Source: Okeania sp.
GTDB lineage: Bacteria; Cyanobacteriota; Cyanobacteriia; Cyanobacteriales; Microcoleaceae
Length of the DNA stretch: 18,736 bases
Assembly (NCBI RefSeq): GCF_035285525.1
Contig: NZ_JAYKGW010000160.1
Coordinates: forward strand, 1 to 18,736
Reading direction: 5' to 3'
Both the position numbers and the translations under genes were made by a program. The stretch's first letter is position 1. Every line of letters starts with the position of its first letter. Positions 204-18,736 of this stretch are shown one piece after another. The notes beneath the pieces are model-generated. The model was given only the letters and a program-made list of their open reading frames with translations. It was not told where the DNA came from and made no database searches.

Positions 204-263
204 AAAAATATAATCAATTCCTTCTTTCTGTCTATTTCCTACTTATTCTTGAATATTATCATT

Positions 264-2537: not shown

Positions 2538-2544
2538 GATAAGA

Positions 2545-3000
2545 ATGGCAAACATACAGAAAAAAACACTACCTATTTTGATAGCTGAAGACGACGAAGA
2601 CGATCGTCTTTTAGCCATTGAAGCTTTTGAAGAAAGTCAATTATTAAATGAATTATATATTGTGAAAGATGGAGAAGAATTATTAGACTTTTTGTATCAT
2701 AGAGGTGCTTATCAAGACCCTAAAAGTTCTCCTCGACCAGGGCTAATTTTATTAGACTTAAATATGCCTAAAAAAGATGGTCGGGAAGCTCTTAAAGAAA
2801 TTAAAAGTGACTCTAATTTATGTTCAATTCCAATTGTGATTTTAACTACTTCTAAAGCGGAGGAAGATATTTATCGTTCTTATCTATTAGGAGGAAATTC
2901 TTTTATTGTGAAACCAGTAACGTTTGAGAGGTTAATAGAAATGATGAAGCAGTTGGGTAATTATTGGTTTGAAATTGTTGAACTTCCTACTTATCCCTAA
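2545..3000 (+). CDS. Single-domain CheY-like response regulator (receiver only), probable operon partner of the upstream kinase
   Basis: Starts 8 nt after the kinase stop. Acidic pocket AEDDEDD, phospho-acceptor context LILLDLNMPKKDG, LTTS, and FIVKP lysine. No output domain in 151 aa. Confidence 0.9.
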   Translation: MANIQKKTLPILIAEDDEDDRLLAIEAFEESQLLNELYIVKDGEELLDFLYHRGAYQDPKSSPRPGLILLDLNMPKKDGREALKEIKSDSNLCSIPIVILTTSKAEEDIYRSYLLGGNSFIVKPVTFERLIEMMKQLGNYWFEIVELPTYP

Positions 3001-3040
3001 TTAGATATTGCCGATCGATTATCAAAGAATTGATGTAAAG

Positions 3041-3078
3041 ATTCAGTTATCAGCTATCAGCTATTTTTTTTGTTTTAG
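3041..3078 (+). repeat. STRR-like heptamer repeat (CAGTTAT CAGCTAT CAGCTAT) followed by a T8 run
   Basis: Three tandem heptamers at 3044-3064, then T8 at 3064-3071. A nearly identical module (ATTCAGT...AGCTAWCAGCTATCAGCTATTTTTTTT) lies at 13662-13707, also just 3' of a plus-strand gene. Confidence 0.55.
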
Positions 3079-3379
3079 ATATAAACCTCATCTTTAAGAC
3101 TATACTTTATAAATATCTCTTAGGTGCATCTCACATTTATTTGCAAAAATGCTTTTTTCCTCCATACCTATTTTCTCCATACCTATTTCCTGTTCCCTAA
3201 AAGCAATAAATTTTTCCCTTTCTTTATGTATTAGACATCTCCAGAAATAAAAAATAGAATCAATTCTCCCATACGAAAGCATCAATTACTCTTCCCAGTT
3301 AAGCGTTAAGTGTTCCCTGTTCCCTCTTTTCCGAAGATGTATATTGAGATGCACTTCATCTATCTTGATATAAAGCTTG

Positions 3380-3669
3380 ATAATGGATAACTTTAAAAGC
3401 AGAGTCTTGTTGCTGTTAAAGGAATTCCGATCCAAGAAGTTAGCTAACAGCTAATAACTGTTGACGAAGCATTCCGCAGGAAATGCTTACCGAATAATTA
3501 ATAATTAATAGTTAATAATTAATAATTAAAAGTTGATAGTCAATAATTATTCATTCAACAATTCACCCCTGGAACCCGGACTAAGGATTGGGGATAAATT
3601 TTCATGATTAGTCAATCCCCTTCTTTGAAGAAATAGTAATTATTAATTGTGCATGGCTTTATTGCTGAA
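3380..3669. mobile_element. MITE-like dispersed repeat, family B, copy 1 (core about 3486-3669 plus a left extension sharing the ATAATGGATAA terminus)
   Basis: The core TTACCGAATAATTAATA...TTCATTCAACAATTCACCCCTGGAA...GGGGATAAAT...TAGTCAATCC..CTTCTTTGAAGAA..GTAATTATTAATTG...ATTGCTGAA is nearly collinear with 11810-12010 and related to 8969-9129 and 7015-7234. Confidence 0.5.
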
Positions 3670-4008
3670 TAATTGGTAGATAAAGGGTTTAACATTTTTT
3701 AATTATAATAAAATAAGTACCATATTTTTAGTCTCACACACTCAAAAAGTTAGCATTTTTGCAAGAGTTGAACAAAAAAAATTACTTCTCAATTTTCCCG
3801 TATACTCCTTTTTCTTTGTATTGTAAAATGGCAAAATACAAAAATTTGATTTATCCTATATGTAATAATCCTATTTTATTTGTGTCAAAAATATTACTGT
3901 TTTTTTAGGGAACAAGGAACAAGGAAAAAGCGGGAGTTTCAGTTGATTTATTTACTTTCTGATTTGTCACAACCTCCGCACGGATTGCTATATATAAATA
4001 ATATCATT

Positions 4009-4096
4009 AGGACTTACGCATGAACGCTATTGGTAGGGTGTGTTAGCCTAACGTAACGCACCAATAATCTATATATAGTGCCTTTGCGTAAGTCCT
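4009..4096. mobile_element. MITE-like small dispersed repeat, family A, copy 2
   Basis: TIRs AGGACTTACGCA (4009-4020) and TGCGTAAGTCCT (4085-4096). The interior GAACGCTATTGGTAGGGTG...AACGCACCAATAATCTATATATAG is shared with 13728-13866. Confidence 0.65.
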
Positions 4097-4227
4097 GATC
4101 GTGTTCGGATAATCAGTTATAAAAAAATTTCTCCCTTCTTTCCTTTTGTTTTCCCCCTTACTTCCTGTAAAGTGTCAGTATTCAAACGAACATAATATAA
4201 CTACCTAAAAAAATACAAATTATTCCA

Positions 4228-6879
4228 ATGAACCAAGAAATTATTAGAGTGCTTTTAATAGAAGATGATGAAGATGATTATCTTTTGCTTGATGATTTAT
4301 TATCAGAATTAGAAAGACTAAAAGTCTTGTTAGATTGGGAAAATACTTATCGAGGAGGATTAGCAGCAATCAAGAAAAGTCAACATGATGTTTATTTAGT
4401 TGACTATCGTTTAGGAGAAAAAGATGGGTTAGAATTACTACAAACAGAAATTGTTAAAAATTGCCAAATACCAATTATATTACTCACAGCTCAAAACGAT
4501 GAAGAATTAGATATAGCTGCTCTTAGTTTAGGTGCAGCAGATTATTTACATAAGTCAGAAATAAAATCATATATATTAGAGCGAGTAATTCTTTATGCAA
4601 TTGAAAGAAATCAAAATTTCAAAGCTCTCAAAGAAAGCCAAGCTAAACTACAAGAAGCAGAAAAAATTGCTCATTTAGGTAACTGGGAATATGACATAAA
4701 TACAGAAAAAATAACTTTATCTGATGAAGCTTCTAGAATTTTTGGTTTTAATGGCAATAAATCAGAAATAACTTATTCAGAATTGTTGAAAAGGTTCGTT
4801 TCTGAAAGTCAAGAATTATTAAAAGAAAATCTAGCTTTAGTATTAGAAAAAAAAGCTTATGCTGAATCAGAATACAAAATTATTCGACCTGATGGTAAAT
4901 TTAGATATATCTATACTAAGTCTACTTTAGTAGTCAATAATAACTCCGAAACTAAAGGAATATTTGGTACAATGCTCGATATTACAGAGCGCAAAGAAGC
5001 TGAATTAGAACTACAAAAAATTCGGCAAAAAGAACATTTATTAGGGATAATTATAGACAGAATTAATCAGTCTTTAAATCTGGAAGAAATATTAGAAACT
5101 ATCGTACATTCCGTTAGGGATTTTTTAGAATGCGATCGCGTAATTATTTACCGTTTTCTATCAGATTCAAGTGGTATTGTTGAGAAAGAATCTGTTAGAG
5201 AAGGTTATCCCACGCTTTTAGGTAGAGTTATTGGCGACCCGTTTTTTTCTGACGAAAATATTTTAGAACGATATAAGAAAGGTTATATAAATATAGTAAA
5301 TGATGTCGATATTCGAGAAATTAAAGAGTCCTACCAAAATTTATTTAGGTTATTTCAAGTCAAAGCAAATATAGCATTACCTATATTAATTAATCAACAA
5401 GAAATAGAAACACAAACATCAGGAATTGTGGTGTGGGGATTATTAATTGCTCATCATTGTCGGGAAAAAAGGGAGTGGGAAAAATCTGAAACTGATTTAT
5501 TAAAACGCTTGGCAAATAAGATAGGAATTGCTATTCAAAAAGCTCAACTTTATGATCGTTTAAAACAACTAAATCAAGAATTAGAAAAAATAGCTTATAT
5601 TGATGTTTTGACAGGTGTTTATAATCGTCGTCACTTTGAAGAAAAATTACTAGAAGAGTGGAGAAGATTAGAAAGAGATCGGGCTTCAATGTCAATTATT
5701 ATGGTAGATGTAGATTGTTTTAAATTTTATAATGATACTTACGGTCATCAGCAAGGAGATAAATGTTTACAACAGGTAGCTCAGACTATTCGTGCTACAG
5801 TGAAACGACCAGGAGATTTTGTGGCTAGATATGGAGGGGAAGAATTTGCAGTTGTATTACCAAATACTCCCATAAAAGGAGCTTTTCAAGTAGCAGAAAA
5901 TATTAGAACAGAAATTGAAGCTTTAAAAATTCCTCACCAAGCTTCAGCAGTGAGTAAATGGGTGACAAGTAGTTTAGGATTAGCAAATATAAATTGTGAC
6001 AGTCAATCTAATCCAGAGCTGTTGATTCAAGCCGCAGATATGGCTCTTTATAATGCTAAAATTTCTGGTAGAAATCGCGTGGAAATATATAATACATCCA
6101 TGCAAAATCTGGAAGAGCAAAAACAAGAAATTAATTTAGTTAGACAACTAAAAGATGCTTTGGGGGAAAATCGTTTCTGTTTGTATGGTCAGACAATATT
6201 ACCACTACATGAAGGTGTAAAAACCAAGCTTTGTGAAATTCTGCTCAGATTTTGGGATGGTTCTGGAAAAGTAATTTCACCAACTACTTTTCTCTCGGTA
6301 GCAGAGCGTTATCATTTAATGCTGAGAATTGACCGTTGGGTAATAAAAACTCTATTATCTTATTTGTCTCTACCTCAAATTACTAAGTTATACCAAGACT
6401 TAATTTTTACAGTTAATCTTTCTGGAGTTAGTATTAATGATAGTTCTTTTTCAGAATTTATTGAACATCAATTTGCTATTTCTCAGGTGTCTCCCAAACA
6501 AATTTGTTTTGAAATTACTGAGACTGTAGCTATTGCTAATTTAGAAAATGCAGCTAAGTTTATTCGGTCTTTAAAAAAATTAGGTTGTAGTTTTGTATTA
6601 GATGATTTTGGCACAGGAATGTCTTCTTTTTATTATCTGAAAAACTTGCCAGTAGATTACTTGAAAATTGATGGGATGTTTATTAGAAATATAGAACAAG
6701 ATTCTCTTTCTCAAGGAATAGTAGAGAGTATTTATAATATTGGTAAAACAATGGATTTAAAGGTGATTGCTGAATATATAGAAACCGAATCTATTTTGAA
6801 TAAAATTACTGATTTAGGTATTGACTATGGTCAAGGATTTCATATTGAGAAACCCAGTCAACTAATAACAATGGTATAA
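4228..6879 (+). CDS. Hybrid response regulator / c-di-GMP turnover protein: REC-PAS-GAF-GGDEF-EAL
   Basis: 883-aa ORF. REC (IEDDEDD, LVDYRLG, LLTAQ). PAS (LGNWEYD...FGTMLDITERK). GAF (CDRVIIYRF...LLIAHHC). GGDEF with an intact RYGGEEFAVV site. EAL with CFEITE, DDFGTGMSS, KIDGMFIR and QGF. Confidence 0.92.
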   Translation: MNQEIIRVLLIEDDEDDYLLLDDLLSELERLKVLLDWENTYRGGLAAIKKSQHDVYLVDYRLGEKDGLELLQTEIVKNCQIPIILLTAQNDEELDIAALSLGAADYLHKSEIKSYILERVILYAIERNQNFKALKESQAKLQEAEKIAHLGNWEYDINTEKITLSDEASRIFGFNGNKSEITYSELLKRFVSESQELLKENLALVLEKKAYAESEYKIIRPDGKFRYIYTKSTLVVNNNSETKGIFGTMLDITERKEAELELQKIRQKEHLLGIIIDRINQSLNLEEILETIVHSVRDFLECDRVIIYRFLSDSSGIVEKESVREGYPTLLGRVIGDPFFSDENILERYKKGYINIVNDVDIREIKESYQNLFRLFQVKANIALPILINQQEIETQTSGIVVWGLLIAHHCREKREWEKSETDLLKRLANKIGIAIQKAQLYDRLKQLNQELEKIAYIDVLTGVYNRRHFEEKLLEEWRRLERDRASMSIIMVDVDCFKFYNDTYGHQQGDKCLQQVAQTIRATVKRPGDFVARYGGEEFAVVLPNTPIKGAFQVAENIRTEIEALKIPHQASAVSKWVTSSLGLANINCDSQSNPELLIQAADMALYNAKISGRNRVEIYNTSMQNLEEQKQEINLVRQLKDALGENRFCLYGQTILPLHEGVKTKLCEILLRFWDGSGKVISPTTFLSVAERYHLMLRIDRWVIKTLLSYLSLPQITKLYQDLIFTVNLSGVSINDSSFSEFIEHQFAISQVSPKQICFEITETVAIANLENAAKFIRSLKKLGCSFVLDDFGTGMSSFYYLKNLPVDYLKIDGMFIRNIEQDSLSQGIVESIYNIGKTMDLKVIAEYIETESILNKITDLGIDYGQGFHIEKPSQLITMV

Positions 6880-6885
6880 GATAAA

Positions 6886-7255
6886 TAATAATGGATAATT
6901 ACAGCAGATTCCAAGTATCTTAAATACAGATATTAATAATTAAATCTATCCAGTGCGAGCCGGAAAGCTCGCGGTGTGTACCTAACTAACTAGGATAATT
7001 AATAATTAATAATTAATAATGGATAATTACCGAAGAATTAATAACTAAATAATTAAATAATTCGCGCCTTGAAGCCTCCCCTTTAAAGGGGAAAAAGCGG
7101 TCCTCAGCGGAGCTTCCCGAAGGGTAAGATGGATGGGTTCCCTAACCATATCTAACGACCAACAGAAATAAATTTTTTCCTTTTATTCAATCCTCTTGCT
7201 TTTAGGGAGAGGTAATTATCAATTATCCATTATTGAAAGCAGATTCCAAGTAGAT
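6886..7255. mobile_element. Composite or nested family-B MITE cluster
   Basis: AATAATGGATAATTAC occurs at 6887-6902 and 7015-7030, with an inverted partner AATTATCCATTATT at 7221-7234. A 15-bp direct repeat AGCAGATTCCAAGTA lies at 6903-6917 and 7238-7252. Internal hairpin GCGAGC-cggaaa-GCTCGC, and a family-B core (TTGAAGCCTCCCC...). Confidence 0.5.
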
Positions 7256-7274
7256 CAGGTAAAGCTCAATAATA

Positions 7275-7739
7275 CTAACCTTGATTTTTAATGAGCATGA
7301 CGCGAATAATTTCATTTACTCTCTTTTCCGGAATGTCGAGCGCTTCACACAAACTCTCTAAAAGCTCCTCTTCCTCTTTTGTAACTTGACCATCTGATAA
7401 AACAAGGTCAGTAGCGATCGCAAAAGCAGTCTCATACAAATCGTGGGGAAGCGACTTAAAAGCTGCATCAATAAGTGCTTCATCTCCCTTTTTTTTCTGG
7501 ATTTCACCAAGTTTATCAAACATTCTCTCCATAACTTCACTGGAGTAATTTCTGAAAAGCTGCATTCGACCTAAAAAAGTAAGAAGTAAGTCAGTTTCAA
7601 CATCAGCTAAATAATTATCAGCAGAAATTACCACTAACATAATAGCAGCAAATGATTCAGCAGGTCCTAAAATTATTTCACTTCTGACATTATCACTTTT
7701 GAGACTTTCAGATTGATGCACTCTGTCAAATAATCCCAT
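7275..7739 (-). CDS. TerB-like (tellurite-resistance TerB / DjlA-N-like) family protein
   Basis: 154-aa ORF. It has two helical repeats of the type remembered for TerB domains (ISADNYLADVETDLLLTFLG and LVLSDGQVTKEEEELLESLCEALDI). AAGGAGAAAAA lies immediately upstream of the ATG on the minus strand. The family call comes from motif memory only. Confidence 0.6.
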   Translation of the reverse strand: MGLFDRVHQSESLKSDNVRSEIILGPAESFAAIMLVVISADNYLADVETDLLLTFLGRMQLFRNYSSEVMERMFDKLGEIQKKKGDEALIDAAFKSLPHDLYETAFAIATDLVLSDGQVTKEEEELLESLCEALDIPEKRVNEIIRVMLIKNQG

Positions 7740-7777
7740 TTTTTCTCCTTAGTTATTTTTTGTTTTCTTTAGTTCTA

Positions 7778-7852
7778 ATATAGTAATTCAGTTGTGCCAG
7801 ATTGTATAGAGTAGGAGCCGGTTTGTTTTTGAAATTAACGAATTTAAGTATT
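7778..7852 (+). pseudogene. Relic of the 3' end (motif X region) of a C5-methyltransferase paralogue
   Basis: 7778-7814 matches 18641-18677 at 32 of 37 positions, and all 5 mismatches are G/A transitions. It translates as YSNSVVPDCIE* against YGNSVVPDCVEW in the 3' end of the 17448-18736 gene. Weaker similarity continues to ..AATTTAAGTAT (7841-7851) against ..GATTTAAGCAT. Confidence 0.6.
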
Positions 7853-8056
7853 AGAAATTATAAAACAAAAGAAATAACTAAAATTTGCTAGTTTTCTGGT
7901 GACCACCCTTGGCATTAAGTCAATTAAAATTCTGATACCAAGATGAAAATTATGGTAAAGTATTAACTCAAAGTACCTCCTGTAAACTGGCTTGATTAGT
8001 AGAAATTAATGGGGTGCATTTCATTCATTAAGAAGTTTTTATATTAGTTAACCACT

Positions 8057-8084
8057 GTAGGGACGTTCCATGCAACCTCCCTAC
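8057..8084. repeat. Degenerate copy of the GTAGGGACGTTCCATGGAACGTCCCTAC palindromic repeat
   Basis: GTAGGGACGTTCCATGCAACCTCCCTAC with conserved flanks (CCACT...AAGATTTT). Compare the perfect copy at 10785-10812. Confidence 0.55.
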
Positions 8085-8185
8085 AAGATTTTGACTATGA
8101 CGATGTGGTTCATCCGTTTAAAAAAGACTGTAAAATGAAAAACGCTATAATTTATAATAATCACTAAATAATTCAGATAAAGTCA

Positions 8186-8419: not shown

Positions 8420-8811
8420 TAAAAGAACCTATTTGGATAGACGAAATTATTGCTAAAGCTATTCATGCAGACCAAATTCTGCAACATGGAGGAAGTTCAG
8501 GAATTAGAGATGAAAATTTACTTGCTGCTAGTTTAGCTAGACCCCGACATTTGTTTATTTATGGTCAACCAAATTTATTTGAACTTGCCGCAGCTTATGG
8601 TTATGGTTTAGCTAAAAATCACCCTTTTATTGATGGAAATAAAAGAACAACTTTTATGGTTATGTATACTTTTTTAGGGCTAAATAATTATTTACTAGAA
8701 GTAGGGGAACCAGCAGTTGTAAAAATGATGGAACAGTTAGCAAGTGGGGAAGAAAATCAAGAATCTCTAGGGGAGTGGTTAGCAGAAAATTCTGTTAACC
8801 AAAACTTGTAA
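8416..8811 (+). CDS. Doc/Fic-family death-on-curing toxin, with no canonical start codon
   Basis: The reading frame is open from 8395. It translates as (I)IKEPIWIDEIIAKAIHADQILQHGGSSGIRDENLLAASLARPRHLFIYGQPNLFELAAAYGYGLAKNHPFIDGNKRTT..., including the Fic/Doc motif HPFIDGNKR. The ORF track starts only at TTG 8551, which would remove the conserved N-terminal third. The only codons at the expected start are ATA (8416, 8419) and ATT (8431). Confidence 0.75.
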   Translation: MIKEPIWIDEIIAKAIHADQILQHGGSSGIRDENLLAASLARPRHLFIYGQPNLFELAAAYGYGLAKNHPFIDGNKRTTFMVMYTFLGLNNYLLEVGEPAVVKMMEQLASGEENQESLGEWLAENSVNQNL

Positions 8812-11085: not shown

Positions 11086-12346
11086 ATGAATAACCCTAAA
11101 GAAGATTATATAAAAACGTTTCTGGAATTAGAAAAAGCAGCATCAAAATTTTGGCCTACAGAATTAGCTGAAATGGAAGCAGAGTTAAGTATAATTCCAT
11201 TGTTATTAAAAACACAAGAACAATTTATTAACATCTTAAGGATTGATGTATTTATTAGAATTAGAAGACTTATTTACAATAGTAAACTCTTCAGCTTTGT
11301 CAGGAAACTTATTTGTTAAGCATTTGGTTATTATGGCTGACTTTGGAGGAGAAATGCTCAAACGTATAAGTAGAGAATTTAAAAATTTGTTTCCTAATGA
11401 AGAAATGAAATATTACTGGAAAAGTAGTCAGCGCATTTATAAGTTTCAAGCCTTACCTACAAAAACCTTAAGCAATCAAACTCTTAAAATTAATGGAAAA
11501 GACCTTTTTGTAAAACATTCTTTAGATGAAAGACAAAAAAAAAGATGCCATTGCGCTTCTTTTATTTGGAAGTTCTTGCAGCAATACTAATCAAGAAATT
11601 GCTTCAATTTTAGCAAGATGTGAAATAGGTGATTATTTGGGTAAACCTAATGAATTAGATAGTTTTATTAAGCAGCGATATATTTGGGTTAGTCGTATTA
11701 CAGGAGGTGCAAAATCTAATGCTTTAGGTCATTTAGCACAAAAGTTTGTTCCTCAGTACATATAAAGATGAAATTGGAATTATTGGAATTGAAGTAAAAT
11801 CTGATGCTACCTTACCGAATAATTAATAGTTAATAGCTAATAATTAATAATCTAAGAGTTGATAGTAAATAATTATTCATTCAACAATTCACCCCTGGAA
11901 GCCTCCCCAAGAATTGGGGATAAATCAAAAATTTTTATGATTAGTCAATCCTCTTCTTTAAAGAAGGGGTAATTATTAATTATTAATTGTTCATTATTAA
12001 TTGCTGAACTAATGTAACTCATACTGACCAAATTACAAGACGTTTAACTTCATTTGATATTATAGTCAGAAAAAAACAGAAATATGTAGCTATAGAAGTA
12101 AGTTTTCAAGTAACTACTAATAGTGTTATTGAACCTAAAGTCGGACAAGCAAAAGCTCGTTATGAACAAGTTGAAGCAGCAGGTCACAAAATTGCTTATG
12201 TTATAGATCGAGCAGGAAATTTTGAAAGACAGTCAGCTTGACAAACCATTTGTTTCCATAGTCATTGCACTGTAGCATTTTCTAAAAATGAGTTGTCAAT
12301 TCTTTGTGATTTTTTGAGAAATTACTTAGAAAACAATAATGATTGA
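11086..12346 (+). pseudogene. Decayed gene, probably the type II restriction endonuclease partner of the downstream C5-methyltransferase
   Basis: Track ORFs 11086-11319, 11243-11590 and 11526-11765 occupy frames 1, 2 and 3 and read through as one protein if frameshifts are repaired near 11240-11250, in the A9 run at 11535-11543 and near 11755-11765. The frame continues as ..KDEIGIIGIEVKSDATLP, is interrupted by a ~200 bp family-B MITE, and resumes as VTHTDQITRRLTSFDIIVRKKQKYVAIEVSFQVTTNSVIEPK...RQSA, then TGA at 12239-12241, then 34 more in-frame codons to TGA at 12344-12346. The endonuclease call rests on position and orientation next to the MTase and on a nuclease-like D...E core. The family is not recognised. 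Confidence 0.5.
11810..12010. mobile_element. MITE-like dispersed repeat, family B, copy 4, inserted in the endonuclease-like pseudogene
   Basis: Nearly collinear with 3486-3669 (CTTACCGAATAATTAATAGTTAATA...TTCATTCAACAATTCACCCCTGGAAGCCTCCCC...GGGGATAAAT...TAGTCAATCCTCTTCTTTAAAGAAGGGGTAATTATTAATT...ATTGCTGAA). Boundaries are good to about 10 bp. Confidence 0.6.
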
Positions 12347-12387
12347 AAAAACTGAACAATTTACATACTATTTATAATTCTTATAAA

Positions 12388-13647
12388 ATGACTAAAATTA
12401 GCTTTATTGACTTATTTGCTGGCATTGGTGGAATGAGATTAGGTTTTGAAAAAGCTGCCGAATATTTAAACATTGAAACTGAATGTGTATTAAGTAGTGA
12501 AATAAATCCTGACGCTGCTTTGGTTTATCATAAAAATTTTGCTGAATTTTCTTTAGGAGATATCCGCAAAATTGAAAAGTTACCACCATATCAAATATTA
12601 TTAGCCGGATTTCCTTGTCAGTCTTTTTCTTATGCTGGTAAAAAAGCTGGTTTTGGGGATACTAGAGGTACGCTTTTTTTTGAAATTACCAGATTAATAG
12701 ATACATATAAACCTCAAGCTTTTATCTTTGAAAATGTCCGTGGTTTGCTGACTAATGATCAAGGTAGAACTATCGAAACTATTAAACATGAAATTCAAAG
12801 TAGAGGCTATAGTTTTGACATATTTTTATTGAATAGCGCGAATTTTAATTTACCCCAAAATCGTCTCCGAATTTATATCCTGGGAGTTTTAGATAGTACG
12901 CCAAAATTTAATTTAATTTCTGACCTTGGTCCGAAAGATTCTCATTCTTATCATCCTCAACAATTATCTTTATTTTATCCTCTGAAAAAATCTATAACTG
13001 TGGCGGATATTTTAGAAGATAATCCAGATGAAAAATATAATTGTTCGGAAAAATTTGTCGCAGCTTTAAAAGAAAGATTAAATGGAGATTTGAATAAATT
13101 ACACGGCATGAGGTTAATTGATTATCGGGGTGGAAATTCGATTCATTCTTGGGAGTTAGGATTGAGGGGAAAATGCAGTGTTGAAGAAATAGAATTAATG
13201 AACCGTTTGATTTTGAAACGGAGAAATAGTCAATTTGGTAAACATCAAGATGGTAAATTGTTGAGTCAGGAGCAAATAGCTAGTTTTTTTCCTCATCCTC
13301 AGTTAAATATTTTGCTCAATTCTTTAGTAAGTAAAAATTATCTGCAAATAGTCGAATCAAAATATAAACCAGTGGCAGGTAATTTTTCTTTTGAAATTTA
13401 CAAATTTTTAGACACCGATAAAATTTCTGTAACTTTAGTGGCAAGTGATGCTAATAGGTTAGGAATTTATCATCAAAATAGAATTAGAAAAATTACTCCG
13501 AGGGAAGCTGCAAGATTACAAGGTTTTCCAGATAATTTTATTTTGCATTCTGACAATAATAAAGCTTATTATCAATTAGGAAATTCTGTAAGTATTAATG
13601 TAGTTAAAGCCGTAGCTCAAGAATTGTTATTAAATATAATTAACTAG
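12388..13647 (+). CDS. DNA (cytosine-5)-methyltransferase, intact
   Basis: Motif I FIDLFAGIGGMRLGF, IV GFPCQSFSYAG, RGTLFFEI, VI ENVRGL, VIII QNRLRIYILG, IX RKITPREAARLQGFPDNF, X YYQLGNSVSINV. ATG 12388 gives the usual short N-terminus before motif I; the track ORF opens at TTG 12343. The long variable region (about 170 aa) leaves the specificity unknown. Confidence 0.93.
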   Translation: MTKISFIDLFAGIGGMRLGFEKAAEYLNIETECVLSSEINPDAALVYHKNFAEFSLGDIRKIEKLPPYQILLAGFPCQSFSYAGKKAGFGDTRGTLFFEITRLIDTYKPQAFIFENVRGLLTNDQGRTIETIKHEIQSRGYSFDIFLLNSANFNLPQNRLRIYILGVLDSTPKFNLISDLGPKDSHSYHPQQLSLFYPLKKSITVADILEDNPDEKYNCSEKFVAALKERLNGDLNKLHGMRLIDYRGGNSIHSWELGLRGKCSVEEIELMNRLILKRRNSQFGKHQDGKLLSQEQIASFFPHPQLNILLNSLVSKNYLQIVESKYKPVAGNFSFEIYKFLDTDKISVTLVASDANRLGIYHQNRIRKITPREAARLQGFPDNFILHSDNNKAYYQLGNSVSINVVKAVAQELLLNIIN

Positions 13648-13866: not shown

Positions 13867-14150
13867 GATTCAGAATAAATCTTGCTACAAAATCCAGTTT
13901 TCAAGCCTATATTAGTTTAAATATTCTCCTTAAAATTTAGATTTTTGATAGCTGTTTGAGCTTGAGTTAAAAATAGTCCATAATATAACAATTCTTGCAG
14001 TAGCTAGGATTAATTCAATCTCCTAACAAAATATTGCCATCTTTTTTTTTACTAAATCGAAATTTAACCTAAAATTATTAATCCTTTATAGGCATCCTCC
14101 TAATATAATGAAACAGTTTATTTCTTAGCTAAATTTCTCACTAGATAATT

Positions 14151-15938
14151 ATGCGAACTAATTATTGTGGACAAGTAAATAGTAAAAGTATTGGAAAAAC
14201 CGTTCATCTCTATGGATGGGTAGACCGTCGTCGGGATCATGGCGGAGTAATTTTTTTGGATTTGCGCGATCGCTCTGGCATTGTCCAAATTGTCAGTGAC
14301 CCAGAACGGACACCAGATTCCTATCAAATAGCAGGGGATATTAGAAATGAATATGTGGTCGAAATCACTGGTCGAGTTAGTCGTCGTCCGGAAGAGTCTC
14401 TTAACCCCAAACTTCCTACTGGGGAAATCGAAATTTATGCTGATGATATTAAACTGTTAAATGGTTTAGGTAAGCAACTACCATTTCAAGTTTCTACTGC
14501 TGAAATGGAACCAGTACGGGAAGAGTTGCGACTCAAATATCGGTATTTAGATTTGAGAAGGGAACGGATGACTCGTAACTTGTTATTGCGCCATGAAGTT
14601 GTGAAAGCAGTACGTCGTTTCCTGGAGGACGAACAAAATTTTATTGAAGTCGAAACTCCTATTCTCACTCGTTCTACTCCTGAAGGAGCAAGGGATTATC
14701 TGGTTCCTAGTCGCGTTCATGCTGGGGAATGGTTTGCTCTCCCCCAGTCTCCCCAACTGTTTAAACAAATGTTGATGGTTTCTGGTTTTGACCGTTATTA
14801 TCAAATTGCCCGTTGTTTCCGGGATGAAGATTTGCGAGCGGATCGACAACCGGAGTTTACTCAGTTAGATATGGAAATGAGTTTCATGTCTCAGGAGGAA
14901 ATTATGGAATTAAATGAGCAGTTGGTAGCATACATTTTTCAGAAAGTTAAGGGTGTAGATTTATCTTTACCATTCCCCCGACTGACTTATGTGGAAGCAA
15001 TGGAACGTTATGGTAGTGATAAACCGGATATTCGCTTTGGTTTAGAATTAGTGGATGTTTCTGATTTGGTAAAAGATTCTGGTTTTAAAGTATTTTCTGG
15101 TGCTGTTGCTGCTGGTGGAATAGTCAAAGTGTTGCCTATTCCTGGAGGTAACGATGCTATCTCTAATGTGAGAATTAAACCCGGTGGCGACTTATTCAAA
15201 GAAGCGAGTGAAGCAGGAGCAAAAGGTTTAGCTTTTATTCGCGTCAAAGAGGGAGGAAAGATAGATACTATTGGCGCTATCAAAGACAACCTCACGGAGG
15301 AACAAAAAGAGGAGTTGCTCAAACGCACCAATGCTGAACCTGGTCATTTATTGTTATTTGCTGCGGATCGAGTAAATACTGTGAACAAAACTTTAGATCG
15401 CTTGCGGTTAGTGATCGGGGAACAGTTGGGGTTAATTGATAAAAATAAAATCTGTCTCTTGTGGGTGACAGACTTTCCGATGTTTGAATGGAATGAGGAC
15501 GAAAAACGTTTGGAAGCATTGCATCACCCATTTACTGCACCCCACCCAGATGATATTGATGATCTGACAACAGCACGAGCGCAAGCTTACGATTTAGTGT
15601 TTAACGGTTATGAAATCGGTGGTGGTAGTCGGCGGATATATCAACGAGATGTGCAGGAGAAAGTATTTGAAGCGATCAGTTTATCTGATGAGGAAGCTAA
15701 TAATAAATTTGGCTTTTTATTGGAAGCGTTTGAATATGGCACTCCTCCCCACGGTGGTATTGCTTATGGTTTAGATCGGTTAACGATGTTGTTAGCAGGT
15801 GAGGAGTCTATTCGGGATGTGATTGCATTTCCGAAGACTCAGCAAGCAAGATGCTTGTTAACAAATGCACCTTCTGAAGTTGACAAAAAACAGTTGAAAG
15901 AGTTGCACGTTAGTTCCATTTCTAAACCGAAATCTTAG
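14151..15938 (+). CDS. aspS: Aspartate--tRNA ligase (class IIb aaRS)
   Basis: 595-aa [11 protein letters not shown] start, OB-fold anticodon-binding N-domain ([22 protein letters not shown]), motif 2 [25 protein letters not shown], and motif 3 [13 protein letters not shown]. Confidence 0.97.
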
Positions 15939-15948
15939 GTTTTTTAAG

Positions 15949-15976
15949 GAAAATTCCTGTAGGGGCGAATAGCCAT
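15949..15976. terminator. Hairpin between convergent genes (aspS and the DndB-like gene); possible bidirectional terminator, same style as the other GTAGGG hairpin repeats
   Basis: GTAGGGGCGAAT-agcc-ATTCGCCCTTAC, 12-bp arms with one G:U-compatible mismatch. Lies 11 nt after the aspS stop and 34 nt from the stop of the minus-strand gene. The T-tract is weak. Confidence 0.45.
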
Positions 15977-16009
15977 TCGCCCTTACGTTTATTGCCATAA
16001 TTAATCAAA

Positions 16010-17239
16010 CTATTCCTGATTAAAATTTAACTCTGTTTGGGTATTAGAATGAAGTTTAAGTTTTTCATCTAAGCCAGTCTTTTTTCTAATATAGTTGGCT
16101 AAATCTGTTACACTCGCACCACCACCTGAGCTTTTCACTAGCTTTTTTTTACCATCCGGTTGCTGTGTCATATTGCCAAGCATATTATCCCAATTGGGGT
16201 TATATCGAGACCAATCAATTGTGGCTATCTTTTTTAAAATATCTTCCTTTTCTGAATCGGTTAACCGATTTTTGAGCAACATTTCTAAGTCATAGAAAAT
16301 TAGACCTAAAGCACACCAACCAGGGTATGTATGGTGAATATAATCTTTATTTTCAAAGTTTTCTCCCATTAATGTAGCTAGTGTTTCCAGATAGTCCTCA
16401 ATAGATATTTTTACATCTGCAAAAGTTTCACTGTTTAAGTAACGTTTACCCCTAATAGTTTTACTGTTACTTTTTTGGAAGTTGTAACCTTCACAAGCAC
16501 CTCTAATAAACTTTAGTAAGCACTGTTGTGCGACAAATGCTCCACTTTTCTTTGTCACCCTCGTTGCATTTTTTTCCATTCCTCCTCTGCTTTCAATTAC
16601 AGGAGTTTCTGCAATTGCTTTAGTAAGAGCTATGTATAAATCGCTCTGATCGAGTGCAACTGCCAAACTCTTAGAAACTGGAGTTGCTAAGAAATTAAAA
16701 TCATGGAAAATTTGACCTAGTTGCTCAACTGTTAAATCTCCTGTTTTCTCAGTTGGAGCATAAATCGTCACTGGAAAAGTAAAGGAATTAACAACCTCAG
16801 TTTCTCCTTCTTCTATCAAATCCAGTGCCCCTGTTACTCTTGCTAAACCATCAAGTAGAACTCTAATATTTCTTGCTGAGAGGTCAAACTTTAAATAACC
16901 AATAGCACTGTCAATATCTTTTCCTGTTTCGTCATAGCTTTGAAAGACAGGAACGTTAACCATGCCAATAGATATGGCTGGAAATGCTCCTACCATATCT
17001 TCAGATCTGTCGCTTGCTATTCGTTTTTTAATGTATTCTGCGGTTGTTCTACTACGGTTGGCATCTGTTTTCCTTTGAAGATTTTCGTACAACTCCCTTA
17101 AGTCTGGCTGTAGTTTAGACCAATTTTTGCTGCGGGGATCGTGACCTAATAAATTGTGTATTTCTAGTGGCTTTACTGTCGTTTGAAAGACGTAAAGCTT
17201 ACTACCATATTTTCCTTTGATACTAGGAACTGGAACCAT
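16010..17239 (-). CDS. DndB/DGQHR-like ParB-sulfiredoxin-fold protein with a variant DGLAR motif
   Basis: 409-aa uninterrupted ORF. Ordered motifs are YENLQRKTDANRSRTTAEYIKK (QR...R...YI), FPAISIG, LLDGLARVTG (codons 16838-16852) and FHDFNFLATPVSKSLAVALDQSD. This matches the remembered DGQHR-domain/DndB layout with Q->L and H->A in the name-giving motif. Confidence 0.65.
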   Translation of the reverse strand: MVPVPSIKGKYGSKLYVFQTTVKPLEIHNLLGHDPRSKNWSKLQPDLRELYENLQRKTDANRSRTTAEYIKKRIASDRSEDMVGAFPAISIGMVNVPVFQSYDETGKDIDSAIGYLKFDLSARNIRVLLDGLARVTGALDLIEEGETEVVNSFTFPVTIYAPTEKTGDLTVEQLGQIFHDFNFLATPVSKSLAVALDQSDLYIALTKAIAETPVIESRGGMEKNATRVTKKSGAFVAQQCLLKFIRGACEGYNFQKSNSKTIRGKRYLNSETFADVKISIEDYLETLATLMGENFENKDYIHHTYPGWCALGLIFYDLEMLLKNRLTDSEKEDILKKIATIDWSRYNPNWDNMLGNMTQQPDGKKKLVKSSGGGASVTDLANYIRKKTGLDEKLKLHSNTQTELNFNQE

Positions 17240-17447
17240 TAGAGATAGTATAGTTTAACCTTGATAAATTTTAACTTTACTTTAGTAAGTATACAAGTTT
17301 TTCCTAACAGTGATACAATGAATTTAAACTTAGTATATTTAAGGAAAAGTTTGAGCTATGCTTTGTTGATAATTCAACCTTTGCTAAAAGTATATTTGCA
17401 GACTAACACTCAAAATCAAAAATCACTCACTTAAAGGAAATAATAAA

Positions 17448-18736
17448 TTGACTCAAACTAACAAACTAAAAGCCATAGAATTATTTGCCGGAATAGGTGG
17501 TTTTCGTTTGGGAATGAAAGCTGCAAATATTGATACTATTTGGGCTAATAATATTAATAAACTTTCTTGTCAAGTTTATCAAAGTAATTTTAGTAATAGC
17601 TCCATAGTATTAGACAATATTAATCAAATTAATTCATCAGAAATTCCAGAACACGATATTTTAACGGCACGATTTCCCTGTCAACCATTTAGTCAAGCGG
17701 GTTATTTCAGTTATCAGTTATCAGTGAAACTCCGACTAAAGTCGGAGGCATCAAATACTGATTTCTCGGGAACCGTGTTAAATATTTTTTCATCCCCTTT
17801 TAAGAGGAGACTTTAGACCTCATTTTTTTGTAAAAAAATGGCAATTAGATATAAATTAAGGTGAACACTTTTTTAAGGAGTTATTGAAATAATTCAAGCT
17901 AAAAAGCCAAAATATTTTTTATTAGAAAATGTCAAAAGAATCTTGACTATGGAAAAAGACCATCATTTCCGAATTATATTAAATGCTTTTGCTTCCTTAG
18001 ACTATTTTATTGAATGGCGAATTATTAACCCGATAAATTTTGGTATTCCCCAGAACCGAGACAGAATTTTTATTTTTGGTACTAGGATTAAATCTACACA
18101 AAAAACTCCCGATCTAGAAAAGCTTTCTGTATTTTTAACAGATAATGATATTGATAATTTACCTGGCAATGATAATAAGAAAATCGAAAAATATATGGAG
18201 CCTATTCTTAATTTCAGTAGTAAAAATTATTATTGGGGTATTGCTTATCAAAACAAAATGTACAGTCAATCTTTACCTTTAATGGCTGATATAAAACCCA
18301 GAAAAAAACTCAAATATATTTTGCAAGATGAATCAGAAATAAATCCACAATTTGACTTTACTTCTGATACTCTAGAAAGAATTAAACAGAGCCAAATTGT
18401 AAATAGATATTGTAATGGTGTGGAAATATTATATAACCAAGGTGGGGGAGCGCGTCTTGGCTATACAATATTTGGGATTAATGGGGTTACTTCTACATTA
18501 ACCGCTTCTACTTCTAGACATTATGAAAGATATCAAGTTGGGAATAAATTTCGCCGTTTAACTAATATTGAATATGCTCGTTTAATGGGATTTCCCGATC
18601 ATTGGTGTAGAGTTGCTAAAATTTACAATCAATATGCTTTATATGGTAATTCAGTTGTACCAGATTGTGTAGAATGGATTTGTCGAAGAATTGGTAAACA
18701 AAATTTTAGATTTAAGCATCAAGCTTGGCAACAATT
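17448..18736 (+). pseudogene. DNA (cytosine-5)-methyltransferase disrupted by an insertion, a nonsense codon and a frameshift; runs off the window end
   Basis: Motif I IELFAGIGGFRLG and motif IV RFPCQPFSQAG read in frame from TTG 17448 to 17702. After a ~130 bp foreign segment the gene resumes as KKWQLDIN-TAA(17857-17859)-GEHFF. A 1-nt loss after the T6 run (17869-17874) leads into the frame starting at 17877: GVIEIIQAKKPKYFLLENV (VI), IPQNRDRIFIFG (VIII), TSTLTAS (TRD), RRLTNIEYARLMGFPDHW (IX), LYGNSVVPDCV (X). That frame is open for 286 codons to the window end. Confidence 0.8.
17703..17832. mobile_element. About 130-bp MITE-like insertion splitting the methyltransferase between motif IV and the RG.LFF block
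   Basis: It starts with CAGTTAT CAGTTAT CAGTG heptamers, then the perfect hairpin CTCCGACT-aa-AGTCGGAG and a second imperfect hairpin CCCCTTTTAAGAGGAG. The architecture resembles the family-B core. Flanking coding sequence aligns residue for residue with the canonical PCQxFSxAGKxxGxxDxRGxLFF spacing once the segment is removed. No target-site duplication is evident. Confidence 0.6.

Follow-up and report, generated by a model that had tools for sequence, protein, structure and literature searches.

Does an intact DndB-like gene that stands back to back with a C5 cytosine methyltransferase (MTase) gene form a modification module together with its neighbor? This question was raised by the last part of an 18,736-nt stretch of Okeania sp. 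DNA (contig NZ_JAYKGW010000160.1; hereafter the window), for which a preliminary description had proposed a two-gene system composed of the DndB-like protein and an m5C-MTase. The features involved, including the divergent intergenic region noted in that description and recovered here, are collected in Table 1.

Table 1. Position of the features around the DndB-like gene, with the observation that defines each of them.
Feature	Position in window	Strand	Basis or remark
aspS (aspartyl-tRNA synthetase), housekeeping synteny anchor	14151..15938	+	88.6% nt identity to Dapis aspS region; Pfam annotation of Dapis gene
Lineage-specific single-gene segment, 1.39 kb	about 15954..17345	.	synteny breakpoints; hairpin, DndB-like gene and ~106 bp upstream of gene
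Terminator-like hairpin, 13 pairs, T-rich tail	15958..15987	+	between convergent aspS and DndB-like gene
DndB-like gene (PF14072, ParB/Srx-fold, DG(L/M)(A/G/S)R clade, solitary)	16010..17239	-	intact, 409 aa, ATG start
C-terminal helical domain, residues 205-409, with conserved IDWSRxNP	16013..16627	-	W343, R345, N347 conserved
FHDFN (F178-N182), the FxxxN motif of DGQHR domains	16694..16708	-	F178, D180, N182 invariant
DGLAR (D130-R134) replacing DGQHR; GxxR phosphate-binding (P) motif kept	16838..16852	-	D130, G131, R134 invariant
QR pair (Q55 R56), first DGQHR-domain motif	17072..17077	-	invariant in alignment; motif definition PMC4619093
Divergent intergenic region, 208 bp	17240..17447	.	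conserved with Dapis in MTase-proximal 17346-17447 only
C5 cytosine MTase pseudogene, M.NspV-type	17448..18736	+	PF00145 matches to both halves; window ends ~5 codons before stop
Insertion, 129 bp, in MTase just past motif IV (PCQ...QAG)	17703..17831	+	junction comparison with Okeania L035
Two nonsense substitutions in MTase	17862..17876	+	GGA>TGA 17862-17864, CAA>TAA 17874-17876, relative to Okeania

The minus-strand ORF is intact, and every peptide block quoted earlier was found in its translation. Profile and fold searches, which had been proposed in the same description, bore out its assignment to the DndB/DGQHR branch of the ParB/Srx fold. Pfam DndB (PF14072) matched at 82.6 bits (E=3.6e-23, gathering cutoff 29.1) and over its full length, residues 16-390 aligning with profile positions 14-337 of 338. 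The TIGR03187 DGQHR model gave 41.7 bits, under its cutoff of 58.85, the TIGR03233 DndB equivalog 30.7 bits, under a cutoff of 328, and the PADLOC DndB model 37.7 bits, nothing else being returned for this protein by the PADLOC scan.

A long ORF had been considered unlikely to arise at random, and the probability of 409 codons staying open at this base composition is indeed 8e-15. Moreover, the window protein keeps all 37 columns that are invariant across 41 other aligned homologues, as well as 79 of the 84 columns conserved at 90% or more. Compared with the nearest orthologues, dN was 0.26-0.30 and dS was saturated, so that no dN/dS ratio could be calculated. The GC3 of the gene is 0.27, which is host-like, versus 0.37-0.45 in orthologues, suggesting that the gene is no very recent arrival. 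We read this ORF, with moderate confidence, as a functional, stand-alone member of a DndB-family clade that is probably under selective maintenance, a reading that goes together with an accidental MTase neighbor and with a regulatory role of the protein.

That the ORF has lost its function and has so far escaped disruption by luck is, on the contrary, very unlikely. Decayed genes do abound in this window (fragments of a BanI-like REase gene and of a Fic gene, besides the NspV-type MTase described below), and the alignment with homologue P0003 indicates that the ancestral start apparently changed from ATG to ATA, the present start being 4 codons downstream. Against this stand the improbable open frame and the unbroken set of invariant residues; in addition, the host-like GC3 implies a long undisrupted residence, while the adjacent MTase took three lesions.

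As previously described, the pentapeptide at the core of the domain keeps D, G and R and has lost Q and H, the DGQHR sequence itself being absent from the protein. Both flanking motifs of DGQHR domains, the QR pair and FxxxN, are present, with Q55, R56, F178 and N182 all invariant. Searches gave 396 homologues, mostly of 390-480 aa, and 348 family members detectable by profile; no fewer than 129 clusters belong to the clade at E<=1e-30 (some 130 when clustered at 50% identity). In a motif census almost every one of some 210 members had DG[LMIV][AGS]R, with DG[LM][AGS]R as the consensus, and HDFNF or HDMNF occurred across the clade. As DG(L/M)(A/G/S)R is conserved through the whole clade, DGLAR is a clade-wide signature and no local mutation. 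Members occur in cyanobacteria, Alphaproteobacteria and Acidobacteria with a patchy, sporadic distribution, and we found no literature describing this clade.

We also modeled the protein. The AF2 model of the full length (pLDDT 88.4) places the GxxR, G131-L-A-R134, after strand 126-130 and before helix 132-143, which fits the box II P motif of ParB-CTPases. Foldseek of this model against BFVD returned 9 matches at E<=1e-3, the best at 5.6e-8, to viral proteins annotated as DUF262, GmrSD-N, ParB-like nuclease or DNA-sulfur-modification-associated; AIPR abortive-infection proteins were also among the structural neighbors. Against the PDB nothing was significant, neither with the full model (top match the pNOB8 ParB N-domain 5k5a, E=0.31) nor in a sequence search with the clade profile (best E=0.49). 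The C-terminal domain modeled alone reached a pLDDT of 91.7 and a pTM of 0.89, and Foldseek found no relative for it among solved structures of the PDB (best E 5.2). This domain gave no HNH, PD-(D/E)xK or HEPN match that would indicate a fused nuclease. A HEPN C-terminal domain has been proposed for DndB (PMC3632139); we rejected it for the window protein, as its IDWSRxNP.W motif has no His 4-6 residues past the Arg (Rx4-6H) and no PDB structure matches the C-terminal model.

The neighboring MTase had been called broken, and the comparison with intact 390-aa Okeania enzymes (87-88% aa identity; 83% aa with Dapis; about 92% at the nucleotide level) confirmed it, revealing the insertion and the two nonsense mutations of Table 1. 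Within the insertion lie 2.7 copies of the heptamer TCAGTTA, a hairpin and, at 17814, a TAG in frame. Codon by codon, motif IV also differs from Okeania by a G>R change (TARFPCQ versus TAGFPCQ); motifs I, IV, VI, VIII and X and the PF00145 matches are nonetheless present in the pseudogene. A frameshift, to which 'GEHFFKELLK' in another frame had pointed, was discarded after the junction alignment, which gave an in-frame 129-bp insertion plus the two substitutions. The insertion was also considered as a repeated MITE and this was not retained, since the heptamer part alone recurs, at 3042-3060, and the fold is not unusual (z=-1.4). The heptamer repeats had also hinted at an origin in Nostocales, an idea abandoned in view of the Okeania and Dapis matches of the MTase and aspS.

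What, then, is the usual partner of this MTase? Its intact orthologues in Okeania and Dapis all have an NspV-type REase (TTCGAA; PF27258 / PADLOC REase_II) 19-21 bp downstream, at the Okeania loci a 219-aa PF27258 NspV endonuclease 19 bp 3' of the MTase, and in the window the corresponding position would fall past base 18736. TTCGAA sites number 0 in the window versus 6.7+-2.6 expected. The MTase is apparently the decayed part of an ordinary NspV-type type II R-M system, with the restriction enzyme as its true partner.

Synteny with Dapis clarified how the two genes came side by side. By blastn, window 14008-15953 corresponds to 1597-3541 of the Dapis locus (L039) at 88.6%, and window 17346-17701 to 6899-7254 of the same locus at 91.9%. 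Dapis keeps the order aspS...MTase, and its slot holds three unrelated genes, a PIN-like gene and genes for a 427-aa and a 168-aa protein. Judging from these breakpoints, the DndB-like gene occupies a slot of variable content that separates aspS from the NspV-type R-M system. The 102 bp next to the MTase are conserved in Dapis, which is without the DndB-like gene, suggesting that this stretch is older than the arrival of the gene. In the whole divergent region, 7 promoter-like hexamers were found versus 4.5+-2.2 expected, not above chance, and no notable operator-like palindrome lies upstream of the DndB-like gene. An Rfam scan of the window gave nothing.

These observations bear directly on the proposed module, in which the ParB-fold protein would be either a repressor of the divergent C5-MTase or a restriction-like effector. 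Such a pairing has its attractions, as the two genes are divergently adjacent and share the 208-bp region, DndB is an autoregulatory repressor of its own modification operon (PMC4507180), ParB-fold fusions to MTases exist (PMC12704722), and some Dnd-like DndD/E cores recruit cytosine methylases (PMC10853773). We surveyed about 27 loci out of the 348 detectable family members, mostly non-cyanobacterial, and a C5-MTase was found within 6-8 kb of the DndB-like orthologue at none of them (L001-L027, L028-L033, pEu4). Conversely, none of the six MTase-orthologue loci carries a DndB-like gene, the closest MTase orthologues being partnered by the NspV-type REase. Considering also that the MTase-proximal 102 bp predate the DndB-like gene and that the latter is intact beside a dead MTase, we regard a functional module as extremely improbable. 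The preliminary description had itself stated that orthologues without conserved linkage to methyltransferases would make the adjacency accidental, and this is what the survey returned. The adjacency appears to be accidental and the two-gene module nonexistent; the hedge of an independent role for the DndB-like protein, expressed at the same time, is the direction in which the evidence points.

The neighborhoods did not reveal any other constant partner. No Pfam family was common to more than 3 of the 92 flanking proteins, no neighbor family recurred at orthologous loci beyond pairs of close relatives, and remnants of P63C, YdjM or AAA_22 partners were absent from the window. One orthologue is on plasmid pEu4 with MobQ, ParA and an integrase; integrase and HicAB/BrnT genes stand beside some others, and matches to CBASS, MADS, REase and TIR are scattered among the neighbors as raw occurrences. 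The MADS lead was dropped, as the neighbor proteins of the Acidocella/L021 loci had no match and those of L001 a weak match only. The Bradyrhizobium orthologue sits amid housekeeping genes, a setting as compatible with a cellular role as with one in conflict.

Could the protein instead act in trans, regulating a modification cluster (dnd, dpd or other) that lies elsewhere in the genome or serving it as an accessory subunit? Its family would allow it, since both DndB and DpdB cooperate with modification machinery (PMC4507180, PMC10164549), and our view of the genome is confined to the window, where no dnd, ssp or dpd gene was found among ORFs of at least 80 aa, as noted before. We consider this improbable: the score of the equivalog model is far under its cutoff, the canonical dndB gene shares an operon with dndCDE (PMC4507180), and no dnd or dpd genes were among the scanned neighbors of the orthologues.

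A different possibility, which we judge unlikely though less so than a role in trans, is a single-gene defense or exclusion effector, a ParB/Srx nuclease or an NTP-depleting enzyme like Osa or DUF262/GmrS domains, carried as cargo beside the R-M system. Nuclease or nucleotide-degrading effector functions have been proposed for ParB-superfamily proteins (PMC10853773), DUF262/GmrSD N-domains and AIPR proteins are structural neighbors, the slot beside the R-M system is variable and holds a PIN-like gene in Dapis, and some orthologues adjoin CBASS, MADS, REase or TIR genes or lie on a plasmid. However, in enzymatic DUF262/GmrS and DGQHR proteins the DGQ(H/Q)R residues Q and H are nearly invariant (PMC4619093), and small or hydrophobic residues take their place here. 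No fused nuclease domain was detected, PADLOC matched nothing besides DndB, a PHROGs scan and a phage tblastn search gave no matches, and many orthologous loci are housekeeping contexts.

Our preferred reading is that the DndB-like protein would be a lone NTP-binding, DNA-associated switch or regulator, as its homology suggests. Binding of ATP and GTP has been reported for a DndB-like protein and is abolished by an R>A change in its GxxR (PMC12704722). In the window protein, the QR pair, the phosphate-binding arginine of GxxR and FxxxN could form an NTP pocket as in these ATP/GTP-binding relatives, and, with the polar Q and H gone, any hydrolytic or nuclease chemistry may have changed or disappeared. 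DNA or a partner may be contacted by the helical C-terminal domain, a conserved region that the DndB profile also covers, and NTP occupancy may modulate DNA binding, as reported for DndB. An accessory role in the conflict between host and mobile DNA, or in maintenance, rather than in DNA modification, is suggested by the patchy distribution, the small plasmids and the integrase, toxin-antitoxin and scattered defense neighbors.

A bolder formulation, which we offer tentatively, is that the clade may be an undescribed autonomous single-gene system: a ParB/Srx NTP sensor without Q and H, joined to a structurally unmatched C-terminal domain, in a cassette of ~1.4 kb that would enter small plasmids and variable or defense slots, at times accompanied by a P63C-domain partner, and would act in defense, exclusion or plasmid maintenance, unrelated to DNA modification.

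In either case the DndB-like clade is a little-studied orphan lineage and no new modification system. The database name of its proteins, 'DNA sulfur modification protein DndB', misleads toward phosphorothioation where no dnd genes are nearby, and recognizing a stand-alone clade whose signature is altered (DGQHR -> DG[LM][AGS]R) corrects this annotation. It also provides one more orphan lineage for ParB-CTPase-fold proteins outside chromosome segregation (PMC12704722). The result for the window itself is mostly clarifying, an orphan gene beside an ordinary NspV-type R-M system in decay, within a cyanobacterial genome rich in pseudogenes.

The comparison with known systems locates the protein among its relatives. 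With DndB (DptB) of the dndBCDE phosphorothioation clusters it shares the full length of PF14072, an N-terminal ParB/Srx-type part and a helical C-terminal region, and the QR pair, the G..R of the pentapeptide and FxxxN in the same order; it differs by its equivalog score (30.7 versus 328), by DGLAR instead of DGQHR, and by being a single gene without dndC/D/E neighbors. DpdB of the 7-deazaguanine system is likewise a ParB-like superfamily protein working with DNA, in its case with the dpd modification machinery (PMC10164549), whereas the window protein has no dpdA/dpdC neighbors and matches no Dpd model in PADLOC or NCBIfam. The N-domains of the DUF262/GmrS group (GmrSD, SspE, AIPR/AbiU1-type), to which the BFVD structural matches belong, have in common with it the ParB/Srx fold, QR and FxxxN around a pentapeptide of the DGQQR/DGQHR type (PMC4619093), but they retain polar Q-Q/H residues, and a nuclease (DUF1524/HNH) is usually their fusion or pairing partner, while the window protein lacks Q, H and a detectable nuclease domain. 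As for the neighboring gene, its nearest known counterparts are the NspV-type (TTCGAA) R-M systems of filamentous cyanobacteria; the window copy is a pseudogene, and its endonuclease gene, if present, lies past the window end. The nearest relatives outside the clade are sisters that retain DGQHR (P0357, P0362, P0365, P0371, P0373, P0385, P0386, P0388), which score 95-137 bits against the clade profile and are likewise no DndB equivalogs (46.9-71.8 bits). Most of them have 397-441 aa, a length similar to that of the window protein, and they share with the clade the DPR, HD.N and R.N motifs, differing from it by keeping DGQHR.

The peptide blocks quoted in the preliminary description for the DndB-like ORF, the ORF itself (409 aa, minus strand), its DGLAR position and the 208-bp divergent gap were all found in the sequence. 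The assignment to the DndB/DGQHR family also proved correct, as the Pfam DndB profile (PF14072) matched the protein over its full length (82.6 bits, E=3.6e-23; residues 16-390 on profile positions 14-337 of 338). Of the NCBIfam models, that for the DGQHR domain gave 41.7 bits, under its cutoff of 58.85, and the DndB equivalog 30.7 bits, far under its cutoff of 328; the PADLOC scan returned the DndB model only (37.7 bits). On the minus strand, the four codons preceding the ATG at 17239 (17240-17251) read I-L-S-L, whereas the closest orthologue starts with M-L-S-L-S-T-P; therefore, the ancestral ATG start seems to have become ATA, the present ATG replacing a Ser codon four positions downstream.

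Features of the DndB-like gene, its slot and the divergent methyltransferase
Feature	Position	Strand	Size	Remarks
DndB-like ORF	16010..17239	-	409 aa	ATG start
DGLAR (D130-G-L-A-R134)	16838-16852	-		in DndB-like protein, in place of DGQHR
Divergent gap, DndB-like gene/methyltransferase	17240-17447		208 bp	
Window segment in variable slot	about 15954-17345		1.39 kb	hairpin, DndB-like gene and ~106 bp upstream of it
Terminator-like hairpin	15958-15987			in the 1.39-kb segment
Insertion in methyltransferase	17703-17831	+	129 bp	in-frame; heptamer repeat, hairpin, TAG stop; junction alignment vs Okeania
Nonsense changes in methyltransferase	GGA>TGA at 17862, CAA>TAA at 17874	+		vs Okeania
Methyltransferase motif IV				G>R change vs Okeania; junction alignment

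When 5.8 billion proteins were searched, 396 matched the window protein; among the 120 matches listed, most were full-length with 40-67% identity. Halothece, Bradyrhizobium, Sphingomonas and Acidocella are among the named sources, their proteins being labelled 'DndB'. With a clade profile, 348 of 1.84 billion representatives matched at E<=1e-3, 129 of them at E<=1e-30. Results showed that DG[LMIV][AGS]R is present nearly everywhere among the ~210 members aligned to the clade HMM (GLAR, GLGR, GMAR, GLSR), so that DGLAR is a conserved clade signature and not a local change. DGQHR was kept only in the most distant profile matches (95-137 bits), themselves far under the DndB equivalog cutoff. An alignment of 42 sequences contained 37 invariant columns, including H33-D-P-R36, Q55-R56, D130, G131, R134, F178, D180, N182 and W343/N347; the window protein keeps 37/37 columns that do not vary among the other 41 sequences, as well as 79/84 of those conserved at >=90%. 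We found no paper on the DG[LMIV][AGS]R clade in the literature. Within a known family, the window protein belongs to a variant clade that is stand-alone and uncharacterised, and whose members databases mislabel as phosphorothioation proteins. Family membership could also mean that it is the trans-acting partner of a distant modification cluster, which we hold to be improbable for a protein scoring so far under the equivalog cutoff.

We also looked at the neighbours of DndB-like orthologues in ~27 distinct loci, drawn from assemblies, 185,579 species genomes (20 loci) and PLSDB (the plasmid pEu4). No C5-methyltransferase was found in L001-L027 by phmmer with two C5-methyltransferase queries, nor in the Pfam tables of L028-L033 or the pEu4 annotation. 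In a Pfam scan of 92 flanking proteins (two genes each side), no family occurred in more than three proteins and DNA_methylase was not among the families listed, while all-against-all comparison of four genes each side revealed common neighbours between close relatives only. The preliminary description had proposed the divergent pair in the window as a candidate two-gene modification-linked module and had staked this on the neighbourhoods of orthologues; with no methyltransferase linkage in the ~27 loci, the proposal is refuted and we give it practically no credence.

Some orthologue neighbours are defence genes (a CBASS cyclase with 2TM effector, mad2/3/8, a type II REase, TIR-TM), each found in one or two proteins. 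The window protein as a single-gene defence effector would suit such company; we regard this reading as unlikely. In Halothece/Euhalothece elements (L003/L004, L032, pEu4), a co-oriented P63C-domain gene always lies ~60 bp upstream of the DndB-like gene, and the two may be a genuine two-gene unit in this sub-lineage. A second, degraded copy of the pair was seen within a large internal duplication of pEu4 (L034, Euhalothece natronophila, NZ_CP042330.1; 7367-9503 and 22448-24218). At the two loci closest to the window protein among those with context available (L001 6002-9239 and L031 3-3293; 65-66% identity), the genes directly upstream of the DndB-like gene and co-oriented with it encode an AAA_22/PIF1-like ATPase and a YdjM-family membrane hydrolase; in L001, a SNF2 helicase lies further upstream of this pair. 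The window contains no P63C, AAA_22 or YdjM remnant and no SNF2 helicase.

Leaving out its insertion, the window methyltransferase shares 87-88% identity with intact 390-aa Okeania enzymes and 83% with one from Dapis. In all Okeania and Dapis loci examined, the methyltransferase is followed by a co-oriented endonuclease gene with Pfam PF27258 'NspV'. In the assembled genomes (L035-L039), this gene is an ORF of 219 aa located 19-21 bp downstream; in the short Logan contig L040, it is a called gene of 234 aa overlapping the methyltransferase. The Dapis endonuclease (L039) also matches PADLOC REase_II (E=1.5e-88), and no DndB-like sequence was found in these loci. Junction alignment with Okeania as reference counted three lesions in the window copy; what was an ordinary methyltransferase of a type II R-M system is a pseudogene here. 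NspV recognizes TTCGAA (PMC2779907), a site that occurs 0 times in the 18.7 kb of the window vs 6.66+-2.57 expected from shuffles, which fits NspV-type restriction pressure on the lineage, either current or past.

The insertion opens with the heptamer TCAGTTA x2.7, and a 2-bp GT duplication may flank it; a near-identical heptamer run lies at 3042-3060 (region 3042-3064), and period-7 tandem repeats are found in many intergenic regions of the window. A methyltransferase homologue cluster of 442 aa (P0226) matches both PF00145 and PF27258 (NspV); it may be a methyltransferase-REase fusion, or else its gene call ran through.

Synteny with Dapis sp. BLCC M172 (L039) frames the DndB-like gene. On one side, window 14008-15953 (aspS) is 88.6% identical to Dapis 1597-3541; on the other, window 17346-17701 and 17832-18736 match Dapis 6899-7254 and 7256-8160. 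From the DNA matches, the source would belong to the oscillatorian cyanobacteria, close to Okeania, Dapis and Trichodesmium. Between these anchors, Dapis carries 3.36 kb (3542-6898) with PIN-like, 427-aa and 168-aa genes, the last two being without confident family assignment. This suggests an accessory-gene hotspot between aspS and the NspV-type R-M system. As slot contents differ and the 102 bp adjoining the methyltransferase start are kept in Dapis although it has no DndB-like gene, the latter occupies a variable slot as a single gene and is a neighbour of the methyltransferase only as a by-product. Its GC3 (0.27) falls within that of host genes (0.17-0.32; orthologues 0.37-0.45), so it is not a very recent arrival; yet it is intact while the methyltransferase decayed, which argues for purifying selection. 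A non-functional relic, as its decayed neighbour might invite one to suppose, is very hard to reconcile with a probability of 8e-15 for 409 codons staying open at window composition.

Elsewhere in the window, another decaying R-M system lies at 11243-13647. Its 115-aa ORF aligns with the BanI restriction-enzyme profile (PF24447; PADLOC REase_II) over positions 51-145 of 338 only and is therefore a REase fragment, upstream of an intact 434-aa C5-methyltransferase (12343-13647); GGYRCC occurs once in the window vs 3.5 expected. An 86-aa ORF (8551-8811), matching only the C-terminal end of the Fic/DOC profile (52-93 of 93), is probably another gene fragment. Signalling genes of an ordinary cyanobacterial kind, unrelated to the DndB-like gene, lie at 249-3000 and 4228-6879: a PAS histidine kinase of the ethylene-receptor-like (ETR1_N) type, with a response regulator beside it, and a REC-PAS-GAF-GGDEF-EAL protein.

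The AlphaFold2 model of the window protein, computed with an alignment (pLDDT 88.4), has an N-terminal alpha/beta domain followed by a helical C-terminal half, with G131..R134 between strand 126-130 and helix 132-143. Foldseek against the PDB gave nothing significant (best the pNOB8 ParB N-domain, E=0.31) and a sequence search of the PDB gave no match, while nine BFVD models matched at E<=1e-3 (probabilities 0.99-1.00), annotated as DUF262, GmrSD N-terminal domain, AIPR, 'DNA-sulfur modification-associated protein' and ParB-like nuclease. For this C-terminal half, the HEPN assignment that PMC3632139 put forward for DndB is unsupported, since a separate model of residues 205-409 (pLDDT 91.7) had no PDB match (best E=5.2); its conserved IDWSRxNP is without the Rx4-6H histidine.

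In ParB-CTPase-fold proteins, substitution of the GxxR arginine abolishes NTP binding, and both ATP and GTP are demonstrated ligands of a DndB-like protein (PMC12704722). [quoted passage not shown] By analogy with these, we propose that the window protein is an autonomous NTP-binding, DNA-associated switch or regulator, in which hydrolytic chemistry would be altered or gone with the Q and H, and the conserved C-terminal domain would be a DNA or partner interface. The divergent gap (17240-17447) contains no operator-like palindrome and no above-chance promoter. Three motifs define the DGQHR domain (PMC4619093), and the window protein has a counterpart of each: Q55-R56 for the QR pair, D130-G-L-A-R134 for the DGQHR pentapeptide and F178-H-D-F-N182 for FxxxN.
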